NCBI GenBank assembly: GCA_000004695.1
Contig: CM000152.2
Coordinates: 6,048,001 to 6,112,000, forward strand
Direction of reading: 5' to 3'
Length of the DNA: 64,000 nucleotides
From: Dictyostelium discoideum
Taxonomy: Eukaryota
Shown: in pieces, positions 5,652-28,100 of the stretch
How positions within the stretch are numbered: position 1 is the stretch's first letter
Layout: every line of letters begins with the position of its first letter
Notes under the pieces: model-generated
What the model was told of the DNA's origin: nothing
Databases searched by the model: none
The model's input: only the letters and a program-made list of their open reading frames with translations
Made by a program: the position numbers and the translations under genes

Positions 5652-5685
<34 letters not shown>

Positions 5686-5908
5686 CATTTTCAGTACAAT
5701 ATATATCATGTGTTTTATTGTTATCGATTTGATCATAGTCAATTCTATGATAGTTGTTTGGTTCTAAACCATCTAAATTTAAGAAAATTTCCCCATTCGA
5801 GTTAAAACAATATTCTTCTTCCTCTTCTTCTTCTTCTTTATAAAAACTTGATTTAGTTTTATTTTGGTATATTGAAATTTCTTTATTTCTAATTACGTCT
5901 CTTAACAT
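5393..5908 (-). CDS. Hypothetical small protein with polyE and polyN tracts.
   Basis: ATG-initiated 171-aa ORF on the minus strand. Its low complexity is typical of Dictyostelium proteins. I cannot exclude a chance ORF. Confidence 0.35.
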
Positions 5909-5941
5909 TTTTTTTTTTTTTTTTTTTTATCTAAATGTTTG

Positions 5942-5978
<37 letters not shown>

Positions 5979-6471
5979 AAAAAAAAAAAATATATAAATT
6001 AATAAAAAAAAATAAAAATAAAAATAATTTAAATTTAAATTTAAAAATAAATTTAAAAATAAATTTAAAATTAAAAGTAAATACAAAAACGAATAATGTT
6101 TAAGTTGTATTTAAATTTAAAAAAAAAGAAATAGACTTTCTTGTTTTTTTATTAAATCTAAAACATTAAGTGGATTACAATTTACAAATTTCATATTTTA
6201 TAAAAAAAAAAAAAAAATTAAAAAATAAAAAAAAAAAATTAAAAAAAAAAAAAATATTTTTTGTAGGCTACAACACAATCCTACCCTTTAGGAAACTTCG
6301 CACATTTTTGGACCGAGATATTTATTTTAAAAAAAAAAAATTAAAAAAAATAAAATTTAATTAACATTCAATTATACCTCATAAAAAAAAAAAATAAAAA
6401 AAAGTAAAAACAAATCACACCATTCATTTGTCAATAAAAACTATCCGCAATAGAAAAAAATAAAAAAAAAT

Positions 6472-6896
6472 ATGATAAAAGATACACACTATGAGTATGT
6501 GTTTTATTAATAATATAATTAATTTTAATTTTAATTTTAATTCTAACCAAAAATAAACTAAAAAAAAAAAATAAAAAATAAAAAAAATAAAAATAAAGTC
6601 ATTTTTTTAAAATTATAATTTTAGGAAATAAAGATATAAATAAAAAAGATTTCATAGATAATTCATTTTCTGTATGTTTTTATTTTTTTTATTTTTTTTT
6701 TTAGTTTATTTTTTTTTTTTTTCTTTTTATTAATTTTATTACAAAAATTTAGGAATTTAATTTAGAAAAAAATAAACTTCAACAACAACAAATAAATATT
6801 CAACAAACTCTAAATAGTGAATCAAAAATTAGATTGTTTCAATATGGCAATAAAAGAATAAAACTACAATTGGTATTTTTTTTTTTTTTTTTTTCC

Positions 6897-6934
<38 letters not shown>

Positions 6935-7522
6935 AAATATTAACCAAAATAAAAATATAAATAGTTGAGATATGACCCAGGAGTAGGAGATTCAACTATT
7001 TCTAAAGTATTTAGAGGAACTCATTGTTTAATTGTAATGTTTGATAGTAATAACAAAGACTCTATTAGTAATTTATCTTGTTGGGTTCAAGAATCAAGGA
7101 GGTATTCAAAGATTGATACACCAATAATAATATTAGGAATCAATAATACTGATGATGAACAAAAATTATATGAACAAGATTTAATAGAACAATTGGATGA
7201 AATTAAAAGATCATTCAATAATAATAATAATACTGAAATTCCAATTTTTCAAATAACTTTGAATAATCCAAACCCCAATATATCTAAGCAACTATTTGAT
7301 AGTATTTTAAAAGTTTCAATTGAATTTCAAAATAAAAATGACCCCAATAATTTAATAAATAGCTCAAATAATAATAATATCATAAAAACAACTGCAACAA
7401 CTACCACATCAAATGACATGCCAACAACAATAACTATATCACAATCCCAACATGTATCAACCTCAAATAACCCAAAAAGAAAAACTAATATATTATCATT
7501 TTTATTGTTTTGGAGAAAGTAA
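6472..7522 (+). CDS. Rab-like paralog A. It is highly degenerate: the P-loop is lost and NKxD has become NNTD. Candidate exons are 6472-6494?, 6753-6873 and 6965-7522.
   Basis: Exons 2 and 3 are in frame (..KIRLFQYGNKRIKLQL | LRYDPGVGDSTISKVFRGTHCLIVMFDSNN..IIILGINNTD..). They align with the paralogs B, C and D. The 5' exon linkage has a phase conflict. Confidence 0.4.
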
Positions 7523-7591
7523 TTTATGGTTTTTTTTTTTTTTTTTTTTTTTGGGGGGAATATTAATCAAATTGAGGATAATCTATATAAA

Positions 7592-7622
<31 letters not shown>

Positions 7623-7938
7623 ATAAAAATATCTAATTTTTTTTTTTCATTTTTTATTTCACTAAAAATACCTTTGTAAAAAATATCATTTAAGATATTT
7701 GCAAATTATTTTTTTTTTTTTAGCTTCTTCTGAAAAACACCTAAATCAAAATTATTTTTCGAATTCAAAACTGCACTAAATTTTTCATCTTGTGTTTTTT
7801 AACCAGTTTCGGTAGTCCAAAGGTTTTTTTTTTTTTTTTTTTTCACTAAATATCTTTTGATTTTTTGATGTCATTTATTAAAAAAAGTAAAAAAAAAAAA
7901 AAAAATGGGAAATAAAATATCTAATTATTTTTGTTTAA

Positions 7939-7972
<34 letters not shown>

Positions 7973-8111
7973 TTAAATAAAGAAAATTTAAATTCTTCTT
8001 AAAAATTTCTATTTTATTAAATAAATATTTTACTTGTAATAAATAAATTATAAATATAAATAATAAAAAAAACAAAAAATTAAAAAAAAAAAAAAAAAAC
8101 ATTGAATACCT

Positions 8112-8391
8112 ATGACCACGAGTATGAATTTCAAAAAAAAAAAAAAAAAAAAATTAAAACTTAACATCAATTATACTATTTTATTAAATTTCTTAATTTT
8201 ATTCTAAAAAAATATACAACAAAAATAATAATAGTAAATTCTTTACAACTTTAGTAATTGGTGATACTGGAGTTGGTAAAATGAAATTTATTCAAGGGTA
8301 TAGTGACGATAATTATAAATACTTTTTGAGTGATGGCTCGAGGTTTAAATTATTTTCATACGATGGATTTAAAATAAAATTATTATTGGTG

Positions 8392-8470
<79 letters not shown>

Positions 8471-8476
8471 TTAATT

Positions 8477-8513
<37 letters not shown>

Positions 8514-9036
8514 ATAATTTTTATAGGAAAGATATTTTGATAGACCATATGGCGGTGGATCAAATACCACTGTATATAGAAAAACTCAATGCTTTTTATT
8601 AATGATTGATGTTTGCGATACTGATTCATTGCAAAGTATTAAAATTTGGATAAGAGAAATTGTATCACTATCAAAACATGGAACTCCAATAATAATTATT
8701 GGAAATAAAATTGATTTAAAGGAACATAGAAAATTTACAAGTGAGCAAGCTTTAGAATTAATTGAACAAATTAAAGATAATTTAAATATAAAAATGCAAA
8801 TTCCATATTTTGAAATCTCTTCTATACAACCCGACCAATCACAATATGATAGAATTTTTAAACAAGTTTATTCGTTATCAAACCAAAGATTTTACAAACC
8901 TTTAATTAATATTAATGAAGGTAAAAATATTGTTGTTGAAGATTTTTCAAAAAATGATTCAATCCCCAATGATGATGGAATTAAAAAAAATAGAAAAAGT
9001 AAAATTTTTAAAGATATTTTATCAATTTTTAAATAA
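8112..9036 (+). CDS. Rab-like small GTPase paralog B, missing the switch-II DTAGQ motif. Candidate exons: 8112-8121?, 8234-8388, 8527-9036.
   Basis: Translated exon 2 is KFFTTLVIGDTGVGKMKFIQGY..FKIKLLL and exon 3 is ERYFDRPYGGGSNTTVYRKTQCFLLMIDVCDTDS..IIIGNKIDL.., with G1 and G4 motifs present. Exons 2 and 3 join in phase 0. The first micro-exon carries an 8-nt insertion relative to the paralogs, so the start is uncertain. Confidence 0.5.
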
Positions 9037-9105
9037 AGATATAATTTTTTAAAAAAAAAAAAAAAAAAAAAAGAAATTAAAATATATATTAAAAATGTGT
9101 ATTAA

Positions 9106-9139
<34 letters not shown>

Positions 9140-9363
9140 GTAAAAAAAAAAAAAGGAAAAAAAAGTGGAAATTGAAAACCATTGATATTTTTTTTTTAAA
9201 ATTAAATTAATATTTTAAATGAAAAAAAAAAAAAGCCAATTTTTTGGGTTGGAAGATTTAAATAATATAATATTATTTATCCACAAAAAAAAAAAAAAAA
9301 AACAAAAAAAAAAAAAAATCAATTACATTTTTTAAATTATATATCCAATTGAAATATTAGATA

Positions 9364-9453
9364 TTTTTTTAAAATGAATAAAAAAGAATACGAGTAGGTA
9401 TTGAATATATAAATATGGCCAAATGAATATCATTTTTAATATTTTTTTATTTT

Positions 9454-9501
<48 letters not shown>

Positions 9502-9661
9502 TTTTTAAAACGTTAGTGATTGGAGATACTTGTGTTGGTAAAATAAAATTTATTCAAGGTTATATTGATGAAAATAATAGAGATGTATTTAATAACGATT
9601 CAAGATTTAAATTATTTTCCTGTGACGGATTAAAAATAAAATTTCTATTGGTTTGTTTTAT

Positions 9662-9700
<39 letters not shown>

Positions 9701-10267
9701 TATAAAAAAAAAATAATAATAACATATTTTTTAAATTTAATTTAAACAAAATATGTTTATAGGCCAACTGGAGGTGGATCAAATACAACAGTTTATAAAA
9801 ATACTCAATGCTTTTTAATAATATTTGATGTTTGTAATTTAGATTCCATGCATAGTGTTAAACTTTGGATAAGAGAAATTGTAAAATTTTCACAAGAAGA
9901 TACACCAATTATTGTTATTGGAAATAAGATTGATTTAAATGAAAAAAGACAAGTTAAAAATGAAGAAGTGATAGAATTTATTGGACAAATTAAAGCTGAT
10001 TTACAATTAACATTGAATATTCCATATTTTGAAATCTCTTCATTACAACCCGACCAATCACAATATGAAATAATTTTTAAACAAGTTTATTCATTATCAA
10101 ATCTAAGATTTTTCAACCCATCAATCAGCTTTGACGAGGATAAAGAAATTATTGATGATTGTTACTCTGATATTGATATTAAAGAAGATTCAAATGAAAA
10201 AAAAATTAAAAAACAAAAGAGAAAAAGTAAATCACTTAAAAAAATTGTTTCAATTTTTAAAAAATAA
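9364..10267 (+). pseudogene. Rab-like paralog C, frame-disrupted at the exon 2/3 junction. Exons: 9364-9383, 9497-9650, 9763-10267.
   Basis: Exon 1 is ATGAATAAAAAAGAATACGA followed by a GTAGGT donor. Exon 2 reads (D)KFFKTLVIGDTCVGKIKFIQGY..KIKFLL. Exon 3 reads PTGGGSNTTVYKNTQCFLIIFDVCNLDS..VIGNKIDL.. but starts 1 nt out of phase, and it lacks the ERYFD segment seen in B. Confidence 0.5.
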
Positions 10268-10290
10268 TTATTTAAAAAACAATAAAGCTA

Positions 10291-10324
<34 letters not shown>

Positions 10325-10488
10325 TTTTTTTTTTTTTTTCTCTTTTTTTTTTATATTTTAAAAAAAAAATTACAAAATTGATCAATTTTTATTTTTATAA
10401 CCAACTTTTTTTTATTAACCTTTGTATTATATTTCAATAAAAAAAAAAAATTTTTAACAAACCTAAAAAATGCTTTCAAAACAGGATT

Positions 10489-11318
10489 ATGAGTAAATAT
10501 CATGATAATTGCAATAAAAAAAAAAAAAAAATAAAAAAAAATAAAAAAATAAAAAAATCTAATAATAATAAAAATAGACACTCTATAAAGATTTTATTAT
10601 CAGGAGATTCTGGTAAAAGTAGTTTTTTAAATAGAGCTATTGATGATATATATTTTGAAAATAATGTTTATCAGTGTGCACCCTCTTTAAAATTTTTTAA
10701 TGATCCAAATAGTTCTAGAGAGAATAAATATTATTATAAAAATTTAATATACAAACTTTGTTTTGTAAGTTTGACTAAACATTAAATTTTAAAAAAAATA
10801 TTTATTTAAATAGATTTATAGAGTTATTATTAATTTTTTTTAATTAATTTATATTAAAAAAAAAAAAAAAAAAAAAGTATGAATATTTTCAAGATAGATT
10901 TCGTTCAATAGGTAATAACCCCTATAGAGGTGCAAGATTTAATTTTATTTTATTTAATGTATGTGATCAAGAATCATTTGATAATGTCCCTAAATATTAT
11001 TTTGAGGCAGAAAGGTATGGAAAAGAAGATATTCATATTATTTTAATTGGTGTTGGAATTGATGATATTGAAAATAGAATTATTGATTATGAAGTTGCTT
11101 TAGATTTAGCAAATTCTAATAATACTCCATATTTTGAAGTAAATAATAAATCGCCATCACCACTTGAAAAAGAAATTTATCAAAGAATAATTGAAACTGC
11201 AATCGGAAAAGTTCATGATGAATTAAATATTCAACCTCCACCATCATCAAAACCATCAACTCCAATAACAACAACAACCAAAACTAAAGGTATTTCAGGT
11301 TTTTTAAAAAAGAAATAA
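10489..11318 (+). pseudogene. Rab-like paralog E. It has a degenerate P-loop (LSGDSGKSS), has lost the intron-1 donor (read-through), and has a frameshift in the last exon.
   Basis: ORF 10489-10764 reads MSKYHD..HSIKILLSGDSGKSSFLN..KLCF and ends at a GTAAGT donor. The last exon, 10879-11318, reads YEYFQDRFRSIGNN, then shifts by 1 nt, then reads PYRGARFNFILFNVCDQESFDNV..IGVGIDD.. It is homologous to exon 3 of B and D. Confidence 0.45.
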
Positions 11319-12010
11319 ATAAAAAAACCAATAATAATTAAATAAAATCAACCTTTTTTTTATTTTTTTATTTTTTTATTTTTTTTTTTTTGTAAAACAA
11401 AAACTGTTTTTTGAAATCTCAAAAAATTTCACTTAATTTAATAAGAATCAATTTCAACTGTGAGGTATGAAACAATCTACAAAAAAAAAAAATAAAAAAT
11501 AAAAAATAAAAAAATAAAAAAAATAATAATAAAAATAATAATTAAATATCAGGTATGGATTATTTGGTCTAAATTTGAATTTTGTTTTTTTTTTTTTTTC
11601 TATTTTTACAAAAATTAAAATATCTTTATTTTTTTTTTATTTTTTTTATTTTTTATTTTTTTTTTTTTTTTTAAACAGTTTGATAGCGTTGCACAAAAAA
11701 TTATTGGAGATTGAAAGTTTTTTAATGGGAAAAAAATCTAAAATGATTAATTAACTTGTACAATATTAAAAACCCGAAAAAAGTTGAAAAAAAAAAATCT
11801 TTTCTTTTTTTCAGTGTGATGACGTGCAACAGTAAAAAATCATATTTTATTTTATTTTTTTTGGTTTTTTTTTTTATTTTAAAATAATCAAATTGATACA
11901 CAAAAAAAGACTTCACTAAATTTGATGTGCAATAAAAAAAAATCATTTTGTCTTTGTCTATTTTTTTTACAATTTTTTTATTTTTAATTTGAATAATTTA
12001 TTGTAATAAA

Positions 12011-12047
<37 letters not shown>

Positions 12048-12134
12048 AGATACAAAAAAAAATAATATAAATATAAAAAAGATAATTATAAAAAAAAAAA
12101 AAAATATAAACATAAAAAAGACAAAAAAATAAAT

Positions 12135-12504
12135 ATGTGTGATTACGAGTAAGAAATTTTTATTTTTACAATTATTTGTTTGTTTATTTTTTTTTTTATA
12201 ATTATTTGTTTTTTTTTTTTTTATAATTTTATTTTATATTAATATTAATTAAAAAAAAAAAAAAAAATAGTTTCATATTTGAATTTTTAGTAATTGGTGA
12301 TTGTAATGTTGGAAAATCATCATTTGTATATCAATATTGCGAAAACTTTAAAACCAAAATAAGAAGTAGAGAACGTGGTGATGGTAATACATTTATACCT
12401 AAATTAATAAGAGTTGATGATAAAAATTGTTTTTTAAAATTTGTATGTATTAAAAAAAAAAAAAAAAAAAAAAAATAATTAAATAAATAAAAATTATTAA
12501 TTGT

Positions 12505-12543
<39 letters not shown>

Positions 12544-12989
12544 TTAAATATTATAAAAGAGTAAATTGTTTACCAAATTATAGATTTATAAATATAGCGG
12601 ATTGTATATTTATACTATTTGATGTTTGTAATAGAGAATCATTTGATAATGTTGGACATTATTATAATGAAATTTTAAAATATTCAAGTGAAAATTTATT
12701 AATTACATTAATTGGTTGTAAAGCTGATTTATTAAATAGAGAAGTTGACCAAAATGAAGCATTAGAATTTTCCAAAAAACATAATATACCCTATTTTGAA
12801 GTTAATAATTTTTCACCTTCAGAAATTGAAAAGAATGTTTATCAACAAATCTCACAAACTATTCTACCAGAACTTGTAAATATTAATTCAACTACTCAAC
12901 CTATAACTGAAAATCAACATCCCCCAACTAAACCCCACTCTCCTCCAATTAAAAATAGTTTTTTCAAATTTTGGATAAAAAACAAATAA
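12135..12989 (+). CDS. Rab-like small GTPase paralog D. It is the most intact copy, about 210 aa, and lacks switch-II DTAGQ. Exons: 12135-12148, 12271-12442, 12543-12989.
   Basis: Canonical splice sites (GTAAGA, ..atAG; GTATGT, ..aaAG) give a continuous frame: MCDYDFIFEFLVIGDCNVGKSSFVYQYCENFKTK..KNCFLKF | VKYYKRVNCLPNYRFINIADCIFILFDVCNRESFDNV..LIGCKADL..EFSKKHNIPYFEV.. The N-terminus resembles the Rab motif YDYLFKLLLIGDSGVGKS. There is no C-terminal Cys prenylation motif. Confidence 0.65.
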
Positions 12990-13183
12990 TAATAATAAAA
13001 TAAATAAAAAAAAAAAAAAAAAAAAGGATAATAATTATTATTCATTTTTTAAAAATTTGTATATATAACTAAAAAAATTCTCTCTATTTAATTTAATGTA
13101 AAAAAAATAAAAATAAAAATAAATTAGGAACACAATTATTTCTTTTTTTTTTATAATATTTTAAAAAAGCTTTGGAAATTTAT

Positions 13184-13582
13184 TTAGTTTTTCTTGGCTT
13201 TACGGGCAGCAGCTTTTTTGGCAGAACGGAGAGCAGATTGGACTCTGTGTAAACGACCTAAGGCAGCAGCTCTTAATTCTGGAGCATATTGGGTGGCTAA
13301 AGTTTTGACGAATCTAGCAGTCTTTCTGGTGTTGACAGTTGAGAAAGTGGTGGTTTTTTTTGATTGAGCTGGGAAGGCAGCTTTTTTAACAATCTTTGAT
13401 GAGACAACAACTTTACCGTTAACGGCAGCAACGTCGATGGTGGTTCTTCTGGCAAGACCGGAGTATTTTAAGGAGTTTTTGTTTCTTAAATTACCTGGTT
13501 CAGCAGATAAGGTTAAACCGTGTGAGGATTTTAAGAAAGCGTTGTTCTTTTTGATAATGCTCCAAACGAGATCTTGAGACAT
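13184..13582 (-). CDS. rpl28: 60S ribosomal protein L28e.
   Basis: The 132-aa ORF (MSQDLVWSIIKKNNAFLKSSHGLTLSAEPGNLRNKNSLKYSGLARRT..) aligns with eukaryotic RPL28 (human [43 protein letters not shown]..). It is a GC-rich, codon-biased island in an AT-rich region. Confidence 0.85.
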   Translation of the reverse strand: MSQDLVWSIIKKNNAFLKSSHGLTLSAEPGNLRNKNSLKYSGLARRTTIDVAAVNGKVVVSSKIVKKAAFPAQSKKTTTFSTVNTRKTARFVKTLATQYAPELRAAALGRLHRVQSALRSAKKAAARKAKKN

Positions 13583-24151: not shown

Positions 24152-24224
24152 GCTCGATTAGCTCAGTCGGCAGAGCGTGGTGCTAATAACGCCACGGTCG
24201 CAGGTTCGATCCCTGCATCGAGCA
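24152..24224 (+). tRNA. tRNA-Ile (anticodon AAU).
   Basis: Cloverleaf: acceptor GCTCGAT/ATCGAGC, D arm GCTC..GAGC, anticodon stem TGGTG/CGCCA with loop CTAATAA, T arm GCAGG-TTCGATC-CCTGC, discriminator A. Confidence 0.9.
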
Positions 24225-24254
24225 TAATTTTATTAGAGAATATAAATGGTCAAG

Positions 24255-24265
24255 GGTTCGAACCC
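24255..24265 (+). promoter_or_regulatory. External B box (ex-B box) downstream of tRNA-Ile.
   Basis: GGTTCGAACCC, 31 bp after the tRNA 3' end, matches the pol III B-box consensus GGTTCGANNCC. Dictyostelium tRNA genes typically carry such a downstream ex-B. Confidence 0.5.
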
Positions 24266-24424
24266 TTAGTTTATAATTCCACTATTTTAGTCATAATATA
24301 TAAAGCACAATGAATATTATATGAATATTCTTTTTATTACAATTATGAATATTATGATTATAAAAAACTTATTTAACAATGATATTCATTACAATTGTAG
24401 ATAAAAAACAATCAAAAAACCGAC

Positions 24425-24545
24425 ATGGATCAAGCATTTTTGGAGGTGCACTAAAACATTAAAAACATCACAGACTTTGGTTCGAGTTTTGGTCTATGAC
24501 AACAATTAATGTTGACCAAAATGGCTCACCTCCAAAAATTCAAGC
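24425..24545. repeat. About 120-bp palindromic element with a B-box-like core.
   Basis: Left arm caagcatttttggaggtgcac and right arm ggctcacctccaaaaattcaagc are near-perfect reverse complements. The centre contains ttggttcgagttttggtc. Confidence 0.3.
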
Positions 24546-24642
24546 AATAGGATAGAAATTCTAACCAAAAAATTAAAAAAAAACCAAATCAAATCAAATT
24601 AAAGAGTTTCTTGTGGAATCTAAGGTTTACATTTTTTTAATA

Positions 24643-24655
24643 TTTTGAAAAAAAG
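24643..24655. repeat. Target-site duplication (left copy) of the TRE5-A insertion: TTTTGAAAAAAAG.
   Basis: Identical 13-mer at 30733-30745, immediately outside the other element end. Confidence 0.7.
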
Positions 24656-25102
24656 TTTTTTTTTTTTTTTTTTTTTTTTTTGAATTGGATAACGCAATTA
24701 TTATTTGCTTCTCCTTGAGATGCTAGATCTCATTTTATTTTATTTTTTTTTTTTTTTTACAGGGTCTCTAAAAGAGGGGTTAGTTTACTTTTTTTTTTTT
24801 TTTTTTTTTGTTTCGAATTTTGAATTGTATTATTACTTTTGATTAAAACATCTTTTTTGTCCAAACTTTTTTCTAAATCTTTTTTTATTTTATCGTCTGG
24901 TTCGTGATTGATGTTTATGACGTATTTGAATTGTTTTTTTTTTAATTGAGTTTTATCCACAATTTCGCTTATTTTTTGTAGGCATTTGTGTTGCTTAATA
25001 TTTGTGGTGTTGTTTGTGATTTTCATTTTATTTTCTTTCTATTTTTTATATTTTTCTTTAAAAAGTTAAAAATCTGGAAATTTTCTGATTATCTTGGGTT
25101 CA

Positions 25103-25163
<61 letters not shown>

Positions 25164-28100
25164 TTATTTATAGAAAGTACTGAGTGAATTATTGTATTTT
25201 TTGAGATGTTTAGGAAGTTCTATTGCGTGAAGAGGTGAGTTCCATTGTCTGCTAAATTGTAATAGCTTTAGCGAGATTAGTGAGTCTAATTTATTTTGTT
25301 CTTCTGGCCGTTGCTTTGATTTGATTCTTAATGTTTTGTTTATAACCGCTTGTGTCCTGTCCCATGCAGCTCTTTGTGTTTTAATTAGTTCACGTATGAC
25401 TTGTTGTCTGTGAATTATTATTTCTTTTTCATCGTGAATGAGTTTATTTCTTTTGTGCCAGATTTTATCGAATATAATAGCTATTAAATTGGCTACTAGT
25501 GCAATTTGTAGATGGTTTAAAATCTTCACATTCCAGGTGTGAGTGGTGTGTCCACACTTAGTTAGGGTGTAGTTGAAGATTTCTTGTGTGTTTTTGATGT
25601 GGGCTTTGCAGTTGAAGAATATATGTTCTGAGGTCTCATCTTCCCCACACTGTTGGCATGGCATGTTGTATATTTTTGGTAGTGCTTTCAGTGTGTATCT
25701 CCATAATAGATCTCTACCTTTCATGTTTATTATTTTTTTGATTTCTTTAAATGGAAGGTGTTTGCTATTAATTTTGGTCATTATTTCTTTTTGGCCAGGA
25801 GTTGGTATGAATTTGTTGTGTTCAGGAGATTGAGTTGTCATCATATCTTCGTATATTTTTTTTAATTTTGGGAGGTGTTCGTAGTGTGTTTGTTTATTTT
25901 GTGGAGTTTTTAATTGGGTCCATGCTTGCTTGCATTGCCAGTGTAGTTGTAGTTGATTTTGTTTTGTTGTTGTTTTGTTGTTGTTGTTGTTTTTGAGTTC
26001 CTCTTCCCACAGTTTTATATATGAACTAGGAGTGTTACTTACTCTTTGGTGGAGGTATCTTTCGAATAACCATGCTTTCTGTGCTAGTTCTCTTGTCTTC
26101 AGGTTCCATAAGTTTAGGCCACCATTGATATAGTTGTTTTGTCTTCTTTGTAGTGAAAGAGAGTTTTTAGATTTTGTGTTGAAAACGAATTTTACGATGT
26201 TATTTTCAATACTATTGTGTTGTGGTGTGGTGTTGATGTAAGTGTGGAACGTTAACTGAGATAGTGCATATGTTTTTGCCATTATGAGTCTGCCCATATA
26301 GGTTGATGAAGTTGAGTTCCATGTTACTAGTTTAGCTCTGATGTTGTCTGAGATTGTATTGATTTTGGATTTGATACCCTTATTGTTGAAGTCAAAGCCG
26401 AGGTACCTTTCGTTTGATTTTATGACGGTGTATAGCGTTCTGGTGTTCCATTTGAAAGTGATACACGAGCATTTGGTTTGGTTTATTTTTGCGCTGGTTG
26501 CTTGGCAAAACTTCTTGATCCATTCATTCATGAGGAAATGGTCCATAAAGTTGTATGCTATTGTTGCTGTATCATCGGCGAACTGTAGTATTTTAATGGT
26601 TTCTTTGGTTACACCATTGATGCAGCGGTCATTTATTATAGTAGTTGCCATGCATTCACCCACTAATGCGAAGATAGTGGGAGAGATAGGATCACCTTGT
26701 TTGGTTCCTCTTTTTGATGTAAAGCTTTTAGATAATGAGTTATTGATGTACACTGATGTTTCTGATTCATTGAGTAAGTTCATTATTGTGAGGACCATTT
26801 TGAGTGGTAGTTTTAGATGTGCAAGAGTACGTAGAATGGCGTTATGTGAGAATAAATCGAATGCTTTTTCAAAATCATAAAATGTTATGATTGGTTCCAT
26901 ATCCTCTTTTGTGTTAATCTCTCGTTTTATTATTTCTATTGTTGAGTTTAAGGTGATGATGTTATCGTGCAGTAGTCTTCTTGGTACGAATCCAGTTTGG
27001 AATGGTGAGATTATTTTGTTTAAGAACTTCAGGATCCTATTGTTGATTATTTTCGAATAGATTTTGTAATCGACATTTAGAAGTGTTATTGGTCTATAAT
27101 TATCCAGGTTGTTTGGGTCTCCTTTGTTTTTATATATAGTAATCAATATCCCTTGTTTGAAGTCCTTTGGGATTGTTGTGTTCCAGAAGTGATTGTATAG
27201 TTTTGATATTATTGGTAGAATTTCATTAATGTGGTTTTTGTAAAATGTTGGAAGGAGTCCATCTTTACCAGGTGCTTTTCCTTCTTGTATTTTTTCAATG
27301 CCTAGTCTGATTTCATATCCTTCTATTGGTTGATTAATTTCGTCCAATATCTTTTGATCAATCCTTTTATTGAATGTTTTTAGGAGTTCGTGGTGAGTGT
27401 CTTCGTTGCATTCTCTCTTCTGGTACAGGTTCTCGTAATATCTTCTTGCTACTTCGAGGATATCCTCGTGTTTTGTTACCAAACAATTGTTGCTTGGATC
27501 TAGAATTTGAGGGATTTCATTTGTCTTTCTTTGGACTTTTAACCTTCTGGTTAAGTATTTTGATGGTGTTTCTTTGTTGTTGATGTGGGTGTTGGTTTGG
27601 TTTGCTTGTTTTATTCTTACTTGTTCCTTTAGAATATTGTTGATCTCTTCTTTAAGGAAGATTGCTCTTGAATCTTTGGCTGTTTCGAGTTTTTCTGCGA
27701 GTTCTTTTAGTTTGTTTTTGGTTTTATTGCTTTCTCTAATTTCTATATTAATTGACAGTTTCTTTATTTCATCTTTTAGTTTCAACCATTGTTCGCAAAT
27801 GTTTAATTTGTACCATTTGCTGGTGTTCTCTTCGAATTTTTTATTGTAGTATTTAATTGTTTTATTAATTTTGAGGCTGGTTGAATTCATTTTGAGAGTT
27901 TCTAGGTTTTGTCTCCATAGTCTTTCTCCTTTCTTTTGTTGCTCGTATTCTGGTATTTTTAATTCAATGATTACCATGTTGTGATCAGATTTTAATTTGA
28001 TTTCCTTAGTAGTAACTATTGGGTTTAGATGGAGTATCTTCTTTGAGACAAAGACCCTATCGATGGTTGATTTGTTTCTTGGAAATGTGATTCCATTCTT

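Follow-up and report, generated by a model that had tools for sequence, protein, structure and literature searches.

A tandem array of Rab-derived genes with an overwritten switch II, probably a pseudo-GTPase family, in Dictyostelium discoideum and its relatives

The stretch analyzed here, which we call the window, comprises 64,000 nucleotides of Dictyostelium discoideum chromosome 3 (contig CM000152.2 of assembly GCA_000004695.1, positions 6,048,001 to 6,112,000) with a G+C content of about 20%. It contains five plus-strand, head-to-tail paralogues of the Ras/Rab fold, named A, B, C, E and D in chromosomal order. These genes are already annotated in AX4 as Rab GTPase or small GTPase. A sequence-only reading of the window had set them apart as a divergent family lacking the switch-II WDTAGQ motif; its view that this is not a standard Rab subfamily was fair, even though the annotation files the genes under ordinary names. 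A search with tblastn found no sixth member in the 64 kb. Searching by gene and UniProt identifiers and by topic, we found no paper on these genes in a library that is incomplete and whose supplementary tables lay outside the search. We assembled the gene models manually, using translations in all three frames together with GT/AG sites, with the following results (all positions are those of the window).

Gene A: 6472-6494, 6599-6671, 6753-6872 and 6965-7522, plus strand; 257 amino acids, in-frame GT/AG introns; DDB_G0282647, XP_640174/Q54S65
Gene B: 8102-8121, 8235-8388 and 8527-9036, plus strand; orthologous exons; AX4 XP_001134551/Q1ZXG2, 'Rab GTPase'
Gene C: 9374-9393, 9497-9650 and 9746-10267, plus strand; 231-amino-acid product, intact elsewhere
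Gene E: 10470-10492, 10578-10764 and 10878-11318, plus strand; 216 amino acids; AX4 XP_640176/Q54S63, 'small GTPase'
Gene D: 12135-12148, 12271-12442 and 12543-12989, plus strand; 210 amino acids; AX4 XP_640177/Q54S62, 'Rab GTPase'

The exon junctions are supported by GT/AG sites and a reading frame that are conserved, and by the exact agreement of two of the models with AX4. Model A is residue-identical to XP_640174, annotated as a 'Rab GTPase domain-containing protein', and model D matches XP_640177 with 100% identity over 100% of its length. In a look-up of exact protein matches, genome contigs were the only place where D occurred. Model E is the product called in a newer assembly, while AX4 XP_640176 has 219 amino acids and differs by a 9-nt micro-exon. 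Across the array the window is 99.4-100% identical to another D. discoideum chromosome (GCA_054883475.1), and the differences are mainly in homopolymer lengths. The sequence-only reading placed the five paralogues on the correct strand at about these coordinates, with every stop codon as we find it, but its starts for C (9364) and E (10489) were wrong, since the ATGs lie at 9374 and 10470. The junctions that it gave for D (12148/12271 and 12442/12543) and B (8388/8527) carry GT/AG and are in frame. Its claim that the same junction works in every copy did not extend further: the C junction 9650/9763 causes a frameshift and was rejected in favor of the conserved exon 3 beginning at 9746, and a B start at 8112 was rejected because the sole GT/AG splice would leave it out of frame, the orthologous start being 8102.

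All five products keep a complete small-GTPase fold, and the top PDB matches of A, B, D and E are all Rabs. Pfam Ras (PF00071) has a gathering threshold of 21.6 bits, which all five pass, though weakly, with 28.8 for A, 64.2 for B, 73.0 for C, 56.8 for E and 73.9 for D. The best sequence matches in the PDB were Rab1A for D (E=1.6e-17, with equal lengths) and for E, and Rab3 for B, in agreement with the Rab-like identity first proposed. AlphaFold2 predicted complete G-domain topology, including helix alpha2, both for D (predicted local distance difference test, pLDDT, 80.9; predicted template modelling score, pTM, 0.77) and for A (pLDDT 70.3, pTM 0.71), the most degenerate copy, which has a long insert in the switch-I region. 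Foldseek matched the D model best to Rab11, Rab1, Rab2 and Rab4 (E ~1e-14) and the A model to Rab3D, Rab35 and Rab1 (E ~1e-11). The best matches by structure or sequence were exclusively Rabs (Rab1, Rab3, Rab8, Rab11 and Rab35).

In common with these canonical Rabs, the family has the fold, the overall G-domain length and an N-terminal YD-x-FK-hydrophobic-strand start, as well as scattered remnants: the Rab-like stretch DRFRSIGNNPYRGA retained in E, FRGT in A, and a hydrophobic-FDV-x-(D/N) strand beta4 in all copies. By the RabF motif definitions of Pereira-Leal and Seabra, E alone has fully recognizable RabF3 and RabF4 (RFRSIG, PYRGA), which A and B retain in part. The switch-I motif RabF1 (IGVDF in canonical Rabs) is absent from all five.

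One departure from canonical Rabs is at switch II, where the G3 motif WDTAGQ is expected. The equivalent segments, together with the intron that precedes each of them, are as follows.

Switch-II-equivalent segment, A: 6965-7021, plus strand; LRYDPGVGDSTISKVFRGT; begins at the first codon of the last exon
Switch-II-equivalent segment, B: 8527-8586, plus strand; ERYFDRPYGGGSNTTVYRKT; length equal to Rab1A
Switch-II-equivalent segment, C: 9746-9805, plus strand; TKYVYRPTGGGSNTTVYKNT
Switch-II-equivalent segment, E: 10878-10934, plus strand; YEYFQDRFRSIGNNPYRGA; one residue shorter than Rab1A
Switch-II-equivalent segment, D: 12543-12599, plus strand; VKYYKRVNCLPNYRFINIA; one residue shorter than Rab1A
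Phase-0 intron at the beta3/switch-II boundary, plus strand, with position and phase common to the five copies: A 6873-6964, B 8389-8526, C 9651-9745, E 10765-10877, D 12443-12542

No copy has Asp-x-x-Gly or Gln at the G3 position, and DxxG(Q) was likewise not found there in relatives from D. firmibasis and D. purpureum, so the loss of the catalytic motif described in the sequence-only reading stands. Its further claim, that the exon 2/3 junction precisely deletes the six residues of WDTAGQ, does not. When aligned by MAFFT with human Rab1A residues 57-84, B and C required zero gaps and A, D and E one single-residue gap each; B over this span reads KLLLERYFDRPYGGGSNTTVYRKT. HMMER paired D 3-161 with Rab1A 10-168, aligned B with Rab3 without a gap in this region and placed a one-residue gap between E and Rab1. 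From beta3 to beta4, B and C are equal in length to Rab1A and Rab3, and A, D and E are shorter by one residue. The AlphaFold2 models of D and A fill this interval with a loop and a short helix alpha2. What all copies have at the G3 site is x-[K/E/R]-Tyr, and we conclude that WDTAGQ was overwritten in place by non-catalytic sequence with this conserved element.

A physical removal of switch II by the junction, or its presence on an unannotated micro-exon, is therefore almost certainly the wrong explanation. The idea has an understandable origin, as the intron lies exactly at the end of beta3 and the ERYF of B resembles the ERF that follows DTAGQ in Rabs. Equating the two produced the apparent deletion: it is shifted by six positions relative to the alignment that preserves length, in which ERYFDR falls on WDTAGQ itself. 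The six-residue deletion was thus rejected by three independent alignments and by the predicted topology. A hidden WDTAGQ micro-exon is excluded by the base content of the five junction introns, which are 92-138 nt long, contain 3-9 G or C each and encode D..G in no frame. The sole annotated micro-exon, at 10814-10822 in the AX4 model of E, codes for IYR, and the introns of D. citrinum and D. dimigraforme contain nothing that corresponds to it.

The segment that took the place of switch II is well conserved. Invariant positions across species numbered 19 of 20 in A (four species), 20 of 21 in C, 18 of 20 in D, 14 of 20 in E and 13 of 21 in B, and conservation of the segment equals or exceeds that of the rest of the protein. 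We interpret this as an argument for a retained, non-catalytic role of that surface.

Motifs G1 and G4 decayed differently in each paralogue, and G5 is lost in every copy.

A: G1 P-loop LGNKDINKK, 6621-6647 (GNKDINKK); G4 GINNTD, 7136-7153 (NNTD); G5 lost
B: G1 IGDTGVGKM, 8257-8283; G4 GNKIDL, 8701-8718 (NKID); G5 lost
C: G1 IGDTCVGKI, 9519-9545 (GDTCVGK(I/L/M)); G4 GNKIDL, 9920-9937 (NKID); G5 lost
E: G1 SGDSGKSS, 10600-10623 (GDS--GKS, two residues short); G4 GVGIDD, 11049-11066 (VGID); G5 lost
D: G1 Walker A IGDCNVGKS, 12293-12319, intact; G4 GCKADL, 12714-12731 (CKAD); G5 lost

A full GxxxxGK[ST] occurs only in D (GDCNVGKS) and in the D. purpureum relative, and NKID only in B, C and that relative. 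The P-loops of B and C have M, I or L where Ser or Thr is expected. In D, the guanine-specifying Asn of G4 is replaced by Cys, while Lys and Asp are kept. The SAK of G5 reads ISS, VNN or ITL in all five copies, and the ETSAK-like region first reported is accordingly not there. A VGK P-loop together with GNKIDL had been attributed to each copy; this description fits B and C and fails for A, D and E. The broader statement that the P-loop and guanine-specificity motifs are both kept is true of no single copy, as only G1 is left in D, only G4 in B and C, and neither of the two in A and E. In this the family differs from canonical Rabs, as it does in lacking DTAGQ.

This uneven retention could mean that some copies, with D, B and C as candidates, are still GTPases or nucleotide switches that work through non-canonical residues or residues supplied in trans by a partner. 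Such an arrangement has precedent in general terms: in certain GTPases without the catalytic Gln, its task falls to other residues or to one supplied by a GTPase-activating protein. The pocket-forming fold is predicted with high confidence, D keeps Walker A along with the Lys and Asp of G4, and NKID persists in B, C and the D. purpureum protein. However, the losses go beyond Gln: both Asp and Gly of DxxG are gone in every member, SAK is lost in all, the P-loops of B and C are without the Mg2+-coordinating Ser/Thr, D has Cys for the guanine-specifying Asn, and G1 and G4 are both intact in no copy. We consider residual switching unlikely, although it deserves some weight.

At the other end of the proteins, the prenylatable cysteines of Rabs have been replaced by a conserved polybasic-hydrophobic tail, which reads as follows in the predicted products.

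C-terminal basic-hydrophobic tail, A: 7484-7519, plus strand; TNILSFLLFWRK; end reads ..KRKTNILSFLLFWRK
C-terminal basic-hydrophobic tail, B: 8998-9033, plus strand; SKIFKDILSIFK; end reads ..KNRKSKIFKDILSIFK
C-terminal basic-hydrophobic tail, C: 10229-10264, plus strand; KSLKKIVSIFKK; end reads ..KRKSKSLKKIVSIFKK
C-terminal basic-hydrophobic tail, E: 11280-11315, plus strand; KTKGISGFLKKK
C-terminal basic-hydrophobic tail, D: 12951-12986, plus strand; KNSFFKFWIKNK; end reads ..PPIKNSFFKFWIKNK

We looked for the geranylgeranylation motifs CC, CXC and CAAX and found that no paralogue or orthologue has Cys among its final 10 residues, as the sequence-only reading had also noted for the five copies. 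Unlike canonical Rabs, these proteins thus offer REP and RabGGTase no cysteine, making geranylgeranylation by this route impossible. Net charge over the last 22 residues is +4 to +12 in the five copies and +3 in an E-like protein of D. firmibasis. Helical hydrophobic moments of 0.67-0.78 were obtained for the tails of B, C and the D. purpureum protein. Across species, 9-12 of the last 12 residues are invariant, and the linker that precedes them drifts. Polybasic or amphipathic segments can serve as membrane anchors, and by analogy the tail may stand in for prenylation as a membrane-binding device. The proposal that the family has lost membrane anchoring is therefore doubtful, because a tail of this kind could bind membranes without lipidation. 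Functional analogues exist among better-known proteins: Rit/Rin and RGK proteins have no CAAX or CC motif, Rit and RGK have been reported at membranes via basic-hydrophobic C-terminal clusters, and RABL2, IFT22 and IFT27 are non-prenylated Rab-like proteins. The resemblance is one of function only, as nothing indicates orthology, and most of these proteins keep nucleotide binding.

Comparison with other genomes indicates that the genes are maintained. Orthologous arrays with the same flanking genes were recovered from four genomes (another D. discoideum strain, D. cf. discoideum, D. citrinum and D. dimigraforme), and in each orthologue the frame is open and the introns are bounded by GT/AG. 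Ratios of nonsynonymous to synonymous substitution (dN/dS), estimated by the Nei-Gojobori method at a synonymous divergence (dS) of 0.1-0.75, were 0.07-0.15 for D, 0.06-0.23 for B, 0.13-0.23 for C, 0.17-0.27 for A and 0.41-0.73 for E, with the caveat that this estimator is crude for genes so A/T-rich. These values show that the genes are, by sequence, held under purifying selection in several species. An insertion was seen in the D. citrinum A orthologue (5685-6443 of its locus), which carries a run of about 70 residues, mostly Asn with one Lys, just past the degenerate G4; the G-domain sequence around this run is conserved.

Two alleles in the window are broken, each apparently by a single base. 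At the start codon of B (8102-8104) the window has TTG instead of ATG, the difference being at 8102, and the four other genomes read ATGAATAC at this site. Before C exon 3, the acceptor is AA in the window (9745 is A) and AG in three other genomes. The exon 3 that begins at 9746 reads TKYVYRPTGGG... and is colinear with ERYFDRPYGGG... of B, and use of the alternative AG at 9761-9762 gives a frameshift. An intact 231-amino-acid C product is encoded in other D. discoideum strains, D. cf. discoideum and D. dimigraforme. By sequence, the B and C alleles of the sequenced strain are probably null.

Because of these two lesions, the AX4 annotation of B and C bears marks. The AX4 B model (223 amino acids) begins with an upstream exon at 7905-7932, encoding MGNKISNYF, whose use would remove strand beta1. 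We found no exact match to this string in the D. citrinum, D. cf. discoideum or D. dimigraforme loci (exact-string matching was the only test), and we set the exon aside as non-conserved and destructive of beta1. We note that MGNKISNYF reads like an N-myristoylation-type start. No stand-alone AX4 protein for C was found; the sole AX4-derived model that holds C is an old fusion of B and C, in which B begins at an internal Met and the affected segment of C is skipped. The missing C model looks like a consequence of the acceptor lesion. Both the upstream B exon and the 9-nt IYR micro-exon of E are probably annotation work-arounds. That AX4 is apparently null for B and C is relevant to any AX4-based study of these genes.

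These lesions raise the question of whether the genes are simply Rab duplicates in decay, already non-functional or on their way to being pseudogenes, in which motif loss reflects relaxed constraint. The broken start of B and acceptor of C would fit such a history, as would the lack of C at the D. citrinum locus, the high ratio of E and a motif erosion that varies from copy to copy. There is also a parallel in Acanthamoeba, where degenerate Rab7-like paralogues that lack PM1/PM3 or prenylation motifs have been called 'most likely non-functional' (PMC10913462). Decay does not sit well with frames and splice sites that are intact for all copies in three to four other genomes, with ratios of 0.06-0.27 for A to D, or with a replaced switch-II segment and an extreme C-terminus that are more conserved than the linker. 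Nor would it predict a G3-less member persisting at the syntenic site in D. purpureum. The family as a whole does not resemble dead pseudogenes, even with two window alleles disabled, and we regard general decay as quite unlikely.

The family has a narrow distribution. A profile was run exhaustively against 1.84 billion representatives, and this search and a separate one with a B/C profile found relatives in Dictyostelium only, namely in the discoideum complex, D. firmibasis and D. purpureum. The top multi-domain matches of the profile search were set aside, being mostly fused predictions of ordinary Rabs with canonical or near-canonical G3 and not family members. A word-indexed homologue search missed B, C and E themselves, and its silence carries no weight for absence. 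In D. firmibasis, a B-like gene adjoins a C-like gene, and genes resembling E and D lie next to RPL28e. A single gene, XP_003293042, was found in D. purpureum; it lies at the syntenic site, with RPL28e, Tma16 and a WD40 gene as neighbors. Its product keeps GDRNVGKST and NKID and is already without G3, so the loss of G3 is older than the split between D. purpureum and D. discoideum and has persisted since.

The position of the array is anchored by its downstream neighbors. In the window, D is immediately followed by a ribosomal protein L28e gene (about 13180-13580, minus strand), after which come Tma16 and a gene of the WD40 type. Synteny of these neighbors extends to D. citrinum, D. dimigraforme, D. 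firmibasis and D. purpureum and fixes the ancestral position of the family. Two introns are common to all copies and the D. purpureum gene: one of phase 2, nine codons upstream of the P-loop Gly, and the phase-0 intron already described between beta3 and switch II. In XP_003291501, the nearest canonical D. purpureum Rab that we examined, introns lie elsewhere, including one inside DTA|GQ, four codons from the family intron. This protein is fully canonical, and its N-terminus (YDHSLKIILSGDSGSGKTS) resembles that of E. We considered it as a parent of E, but it scores no better than Rab1A and its intron positions differ; it is no more than a possible parent. Another D. purpureum Rab, XP_003282962, has a shortened and damaged G3 (VWDTYTERFRQ) and keeps a C-terminal CILN, from which we note that G3 erosion is not unique to the array.

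Taken together, we think it likely that the array is a lineage-restricted, tandemly duplicated family of Rab-derived pseudo-GTPases, found so far in D. discoideum and its relatives out to D. purpureum. The sequence-only reading had suggested pseudo-GTPases or constitutive nucleotide binders, and given the lost DxxGQ and prenylatable cysteines this was reasonable. The combination by which pseudoGTPases are recognized in sequence, a retained fold with lost catalytic residues, is present here: G3 and G5 are lost in all members, and the fold is confidently predicted.

Several observations weigh against this interpretation. Pairwise scores split the proteins into two groups, A, B, C and the D. purpureum protein versus D and E, and scores across the groups (48-74 bits) are no better than those to canonical Rabs. 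The monophyly of the five consequently rests on linkage, intron positions and shared losses. The exon junctions rest on sequence conservation and AX4 models, and the case for constraint uses the crude ratios given above. E evolves fast, with dN/dS up to 0.73, and C is absent from the D. citrinum locus; together with the two broken copies in this strain, this shows that individual members are dispensable. Tail hydrophobic moments are modest in A, D and E (0.35-0.42). Finally, nucleotide binding, absent hydrolysis and membrane binding are all deduced from protein sequence.

If the family is indeed one of pseudo-GTPases, no member would be able to cycle as a GTP-hydrolyzing switch, since all lack the catalytic Gln as well as the Asp and Gly needed to hold Mg2+ and the gamma-phosphate. 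D, with its intact Walker A, and B and C, with intact NKxD, may hold nucleotide statically. The proteins would probably act as nucleotide-independent or constitutively loaded adaptors that sit on acidic membranes via the basic, amphipathic tail and use the conserved former switch-II surface for protein binding. A and E probably bind no nucleotide and would be class-i-like in the sense of PMC12490416, class i being pseudoGTPases incompetent in both GTP binding and hydrolysis (PMC12490416; PMC5593906); by sequence, both match that pattern.

Known pseudoGTPases, such as the N-terminal domain of AAGAB and the pseudoGTPase domains of p190RhoGAP, resemble the family in combining a GTPase fold with mutated G motifs, and the conserved non-catalytic surfaces of the family suggest a protein-binding role like theirs. 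The known cases are either domains within larger proteins or single-copy genes of ancient origin, whereas the Dictyostelium proteins are young, stand-alone, Rab-derived and tandemly expanding, with members apparently at different stages of motif loss. Further parallels are lineage-specific degenerate small GTPases of other protists, namely the Acanthamoeba Rab7-like proteins and microsporidian ArlEM, which are divergent paralogues of trafficking GTPases with mutated nucleotide-binding motifs and were interpreted as non-functional GTPases or class-i pseudoGTPases (PMC10913462; PMC13393502). ArlEM and the Acanthamoeba Rab7-like proteins come from other parent subfamilies and other lineages. Relative to both, the Dictyostelium family adds purifying selection, synteny out to D. 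purpureum and a conserved replacement tail.

A more specific proposal concerns why copies turn over. The array could encode fast-turnover, membrane-tethered, Rab1-like decoys or adaptors, in which the former switch II is a nucleotide-independent binding face and in which the B and C nulls, copy-number change and fast evolution of E reflect evolutionary conflict, not decay. Proteins of this kind might sequester or sense factors that bind Rabs, among them bacterial effectors directed at switch II of Rab1 in amoebae. We offer this as speculation and give it little credence.

Should the pseudo-GTPase interpretation hold, the array would provide a natural series of one Rab-derived fold at different stages of losing its nucleotide machinery, with G1 still intact in D, G4 in B and C, and neither motif in A and E. 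It would also be a tractable system for studying what a small-GTPase fold does after switching ends and how membrane targeting is re-invented without prenylation. Nothing is overturned by this, as degenerate Rab paralogues and pseudoGTPases are established categories.

Elsewhere in the window, a G+C-richer block with strong AT skew is flanked by genes for tRNA-Ile(AAT) (24152-24224) and tRNA-Val(AAC) (30780-30854). Between them lie minus-strand open reading frames (ORFs) at 28598-29932 (444 amino acids, no Pfam match) and 25164-28385 (1073 amino acids, RVT_1, E=2e-30). The block (24152-30854) looks like a tRNA-gene-associated non-LTR (long terminal repeat) retrotransposon, presumably of the TRE type. 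A minus-strand ORF at 33891-41948 (2685 amino acids) has the cap, anchor and transmembrane-unit domains of Piezo and encodes a homologue of Piezo-type mechanosensitive channels. Another, at 57920-60673 on the minus strand (917 amino acids), has SPT16/FACT-complex domains, with a Peptidase_M24-like N-terminus followed by SPT16, PH_SPT16 and an Rtt106-like middle domain.

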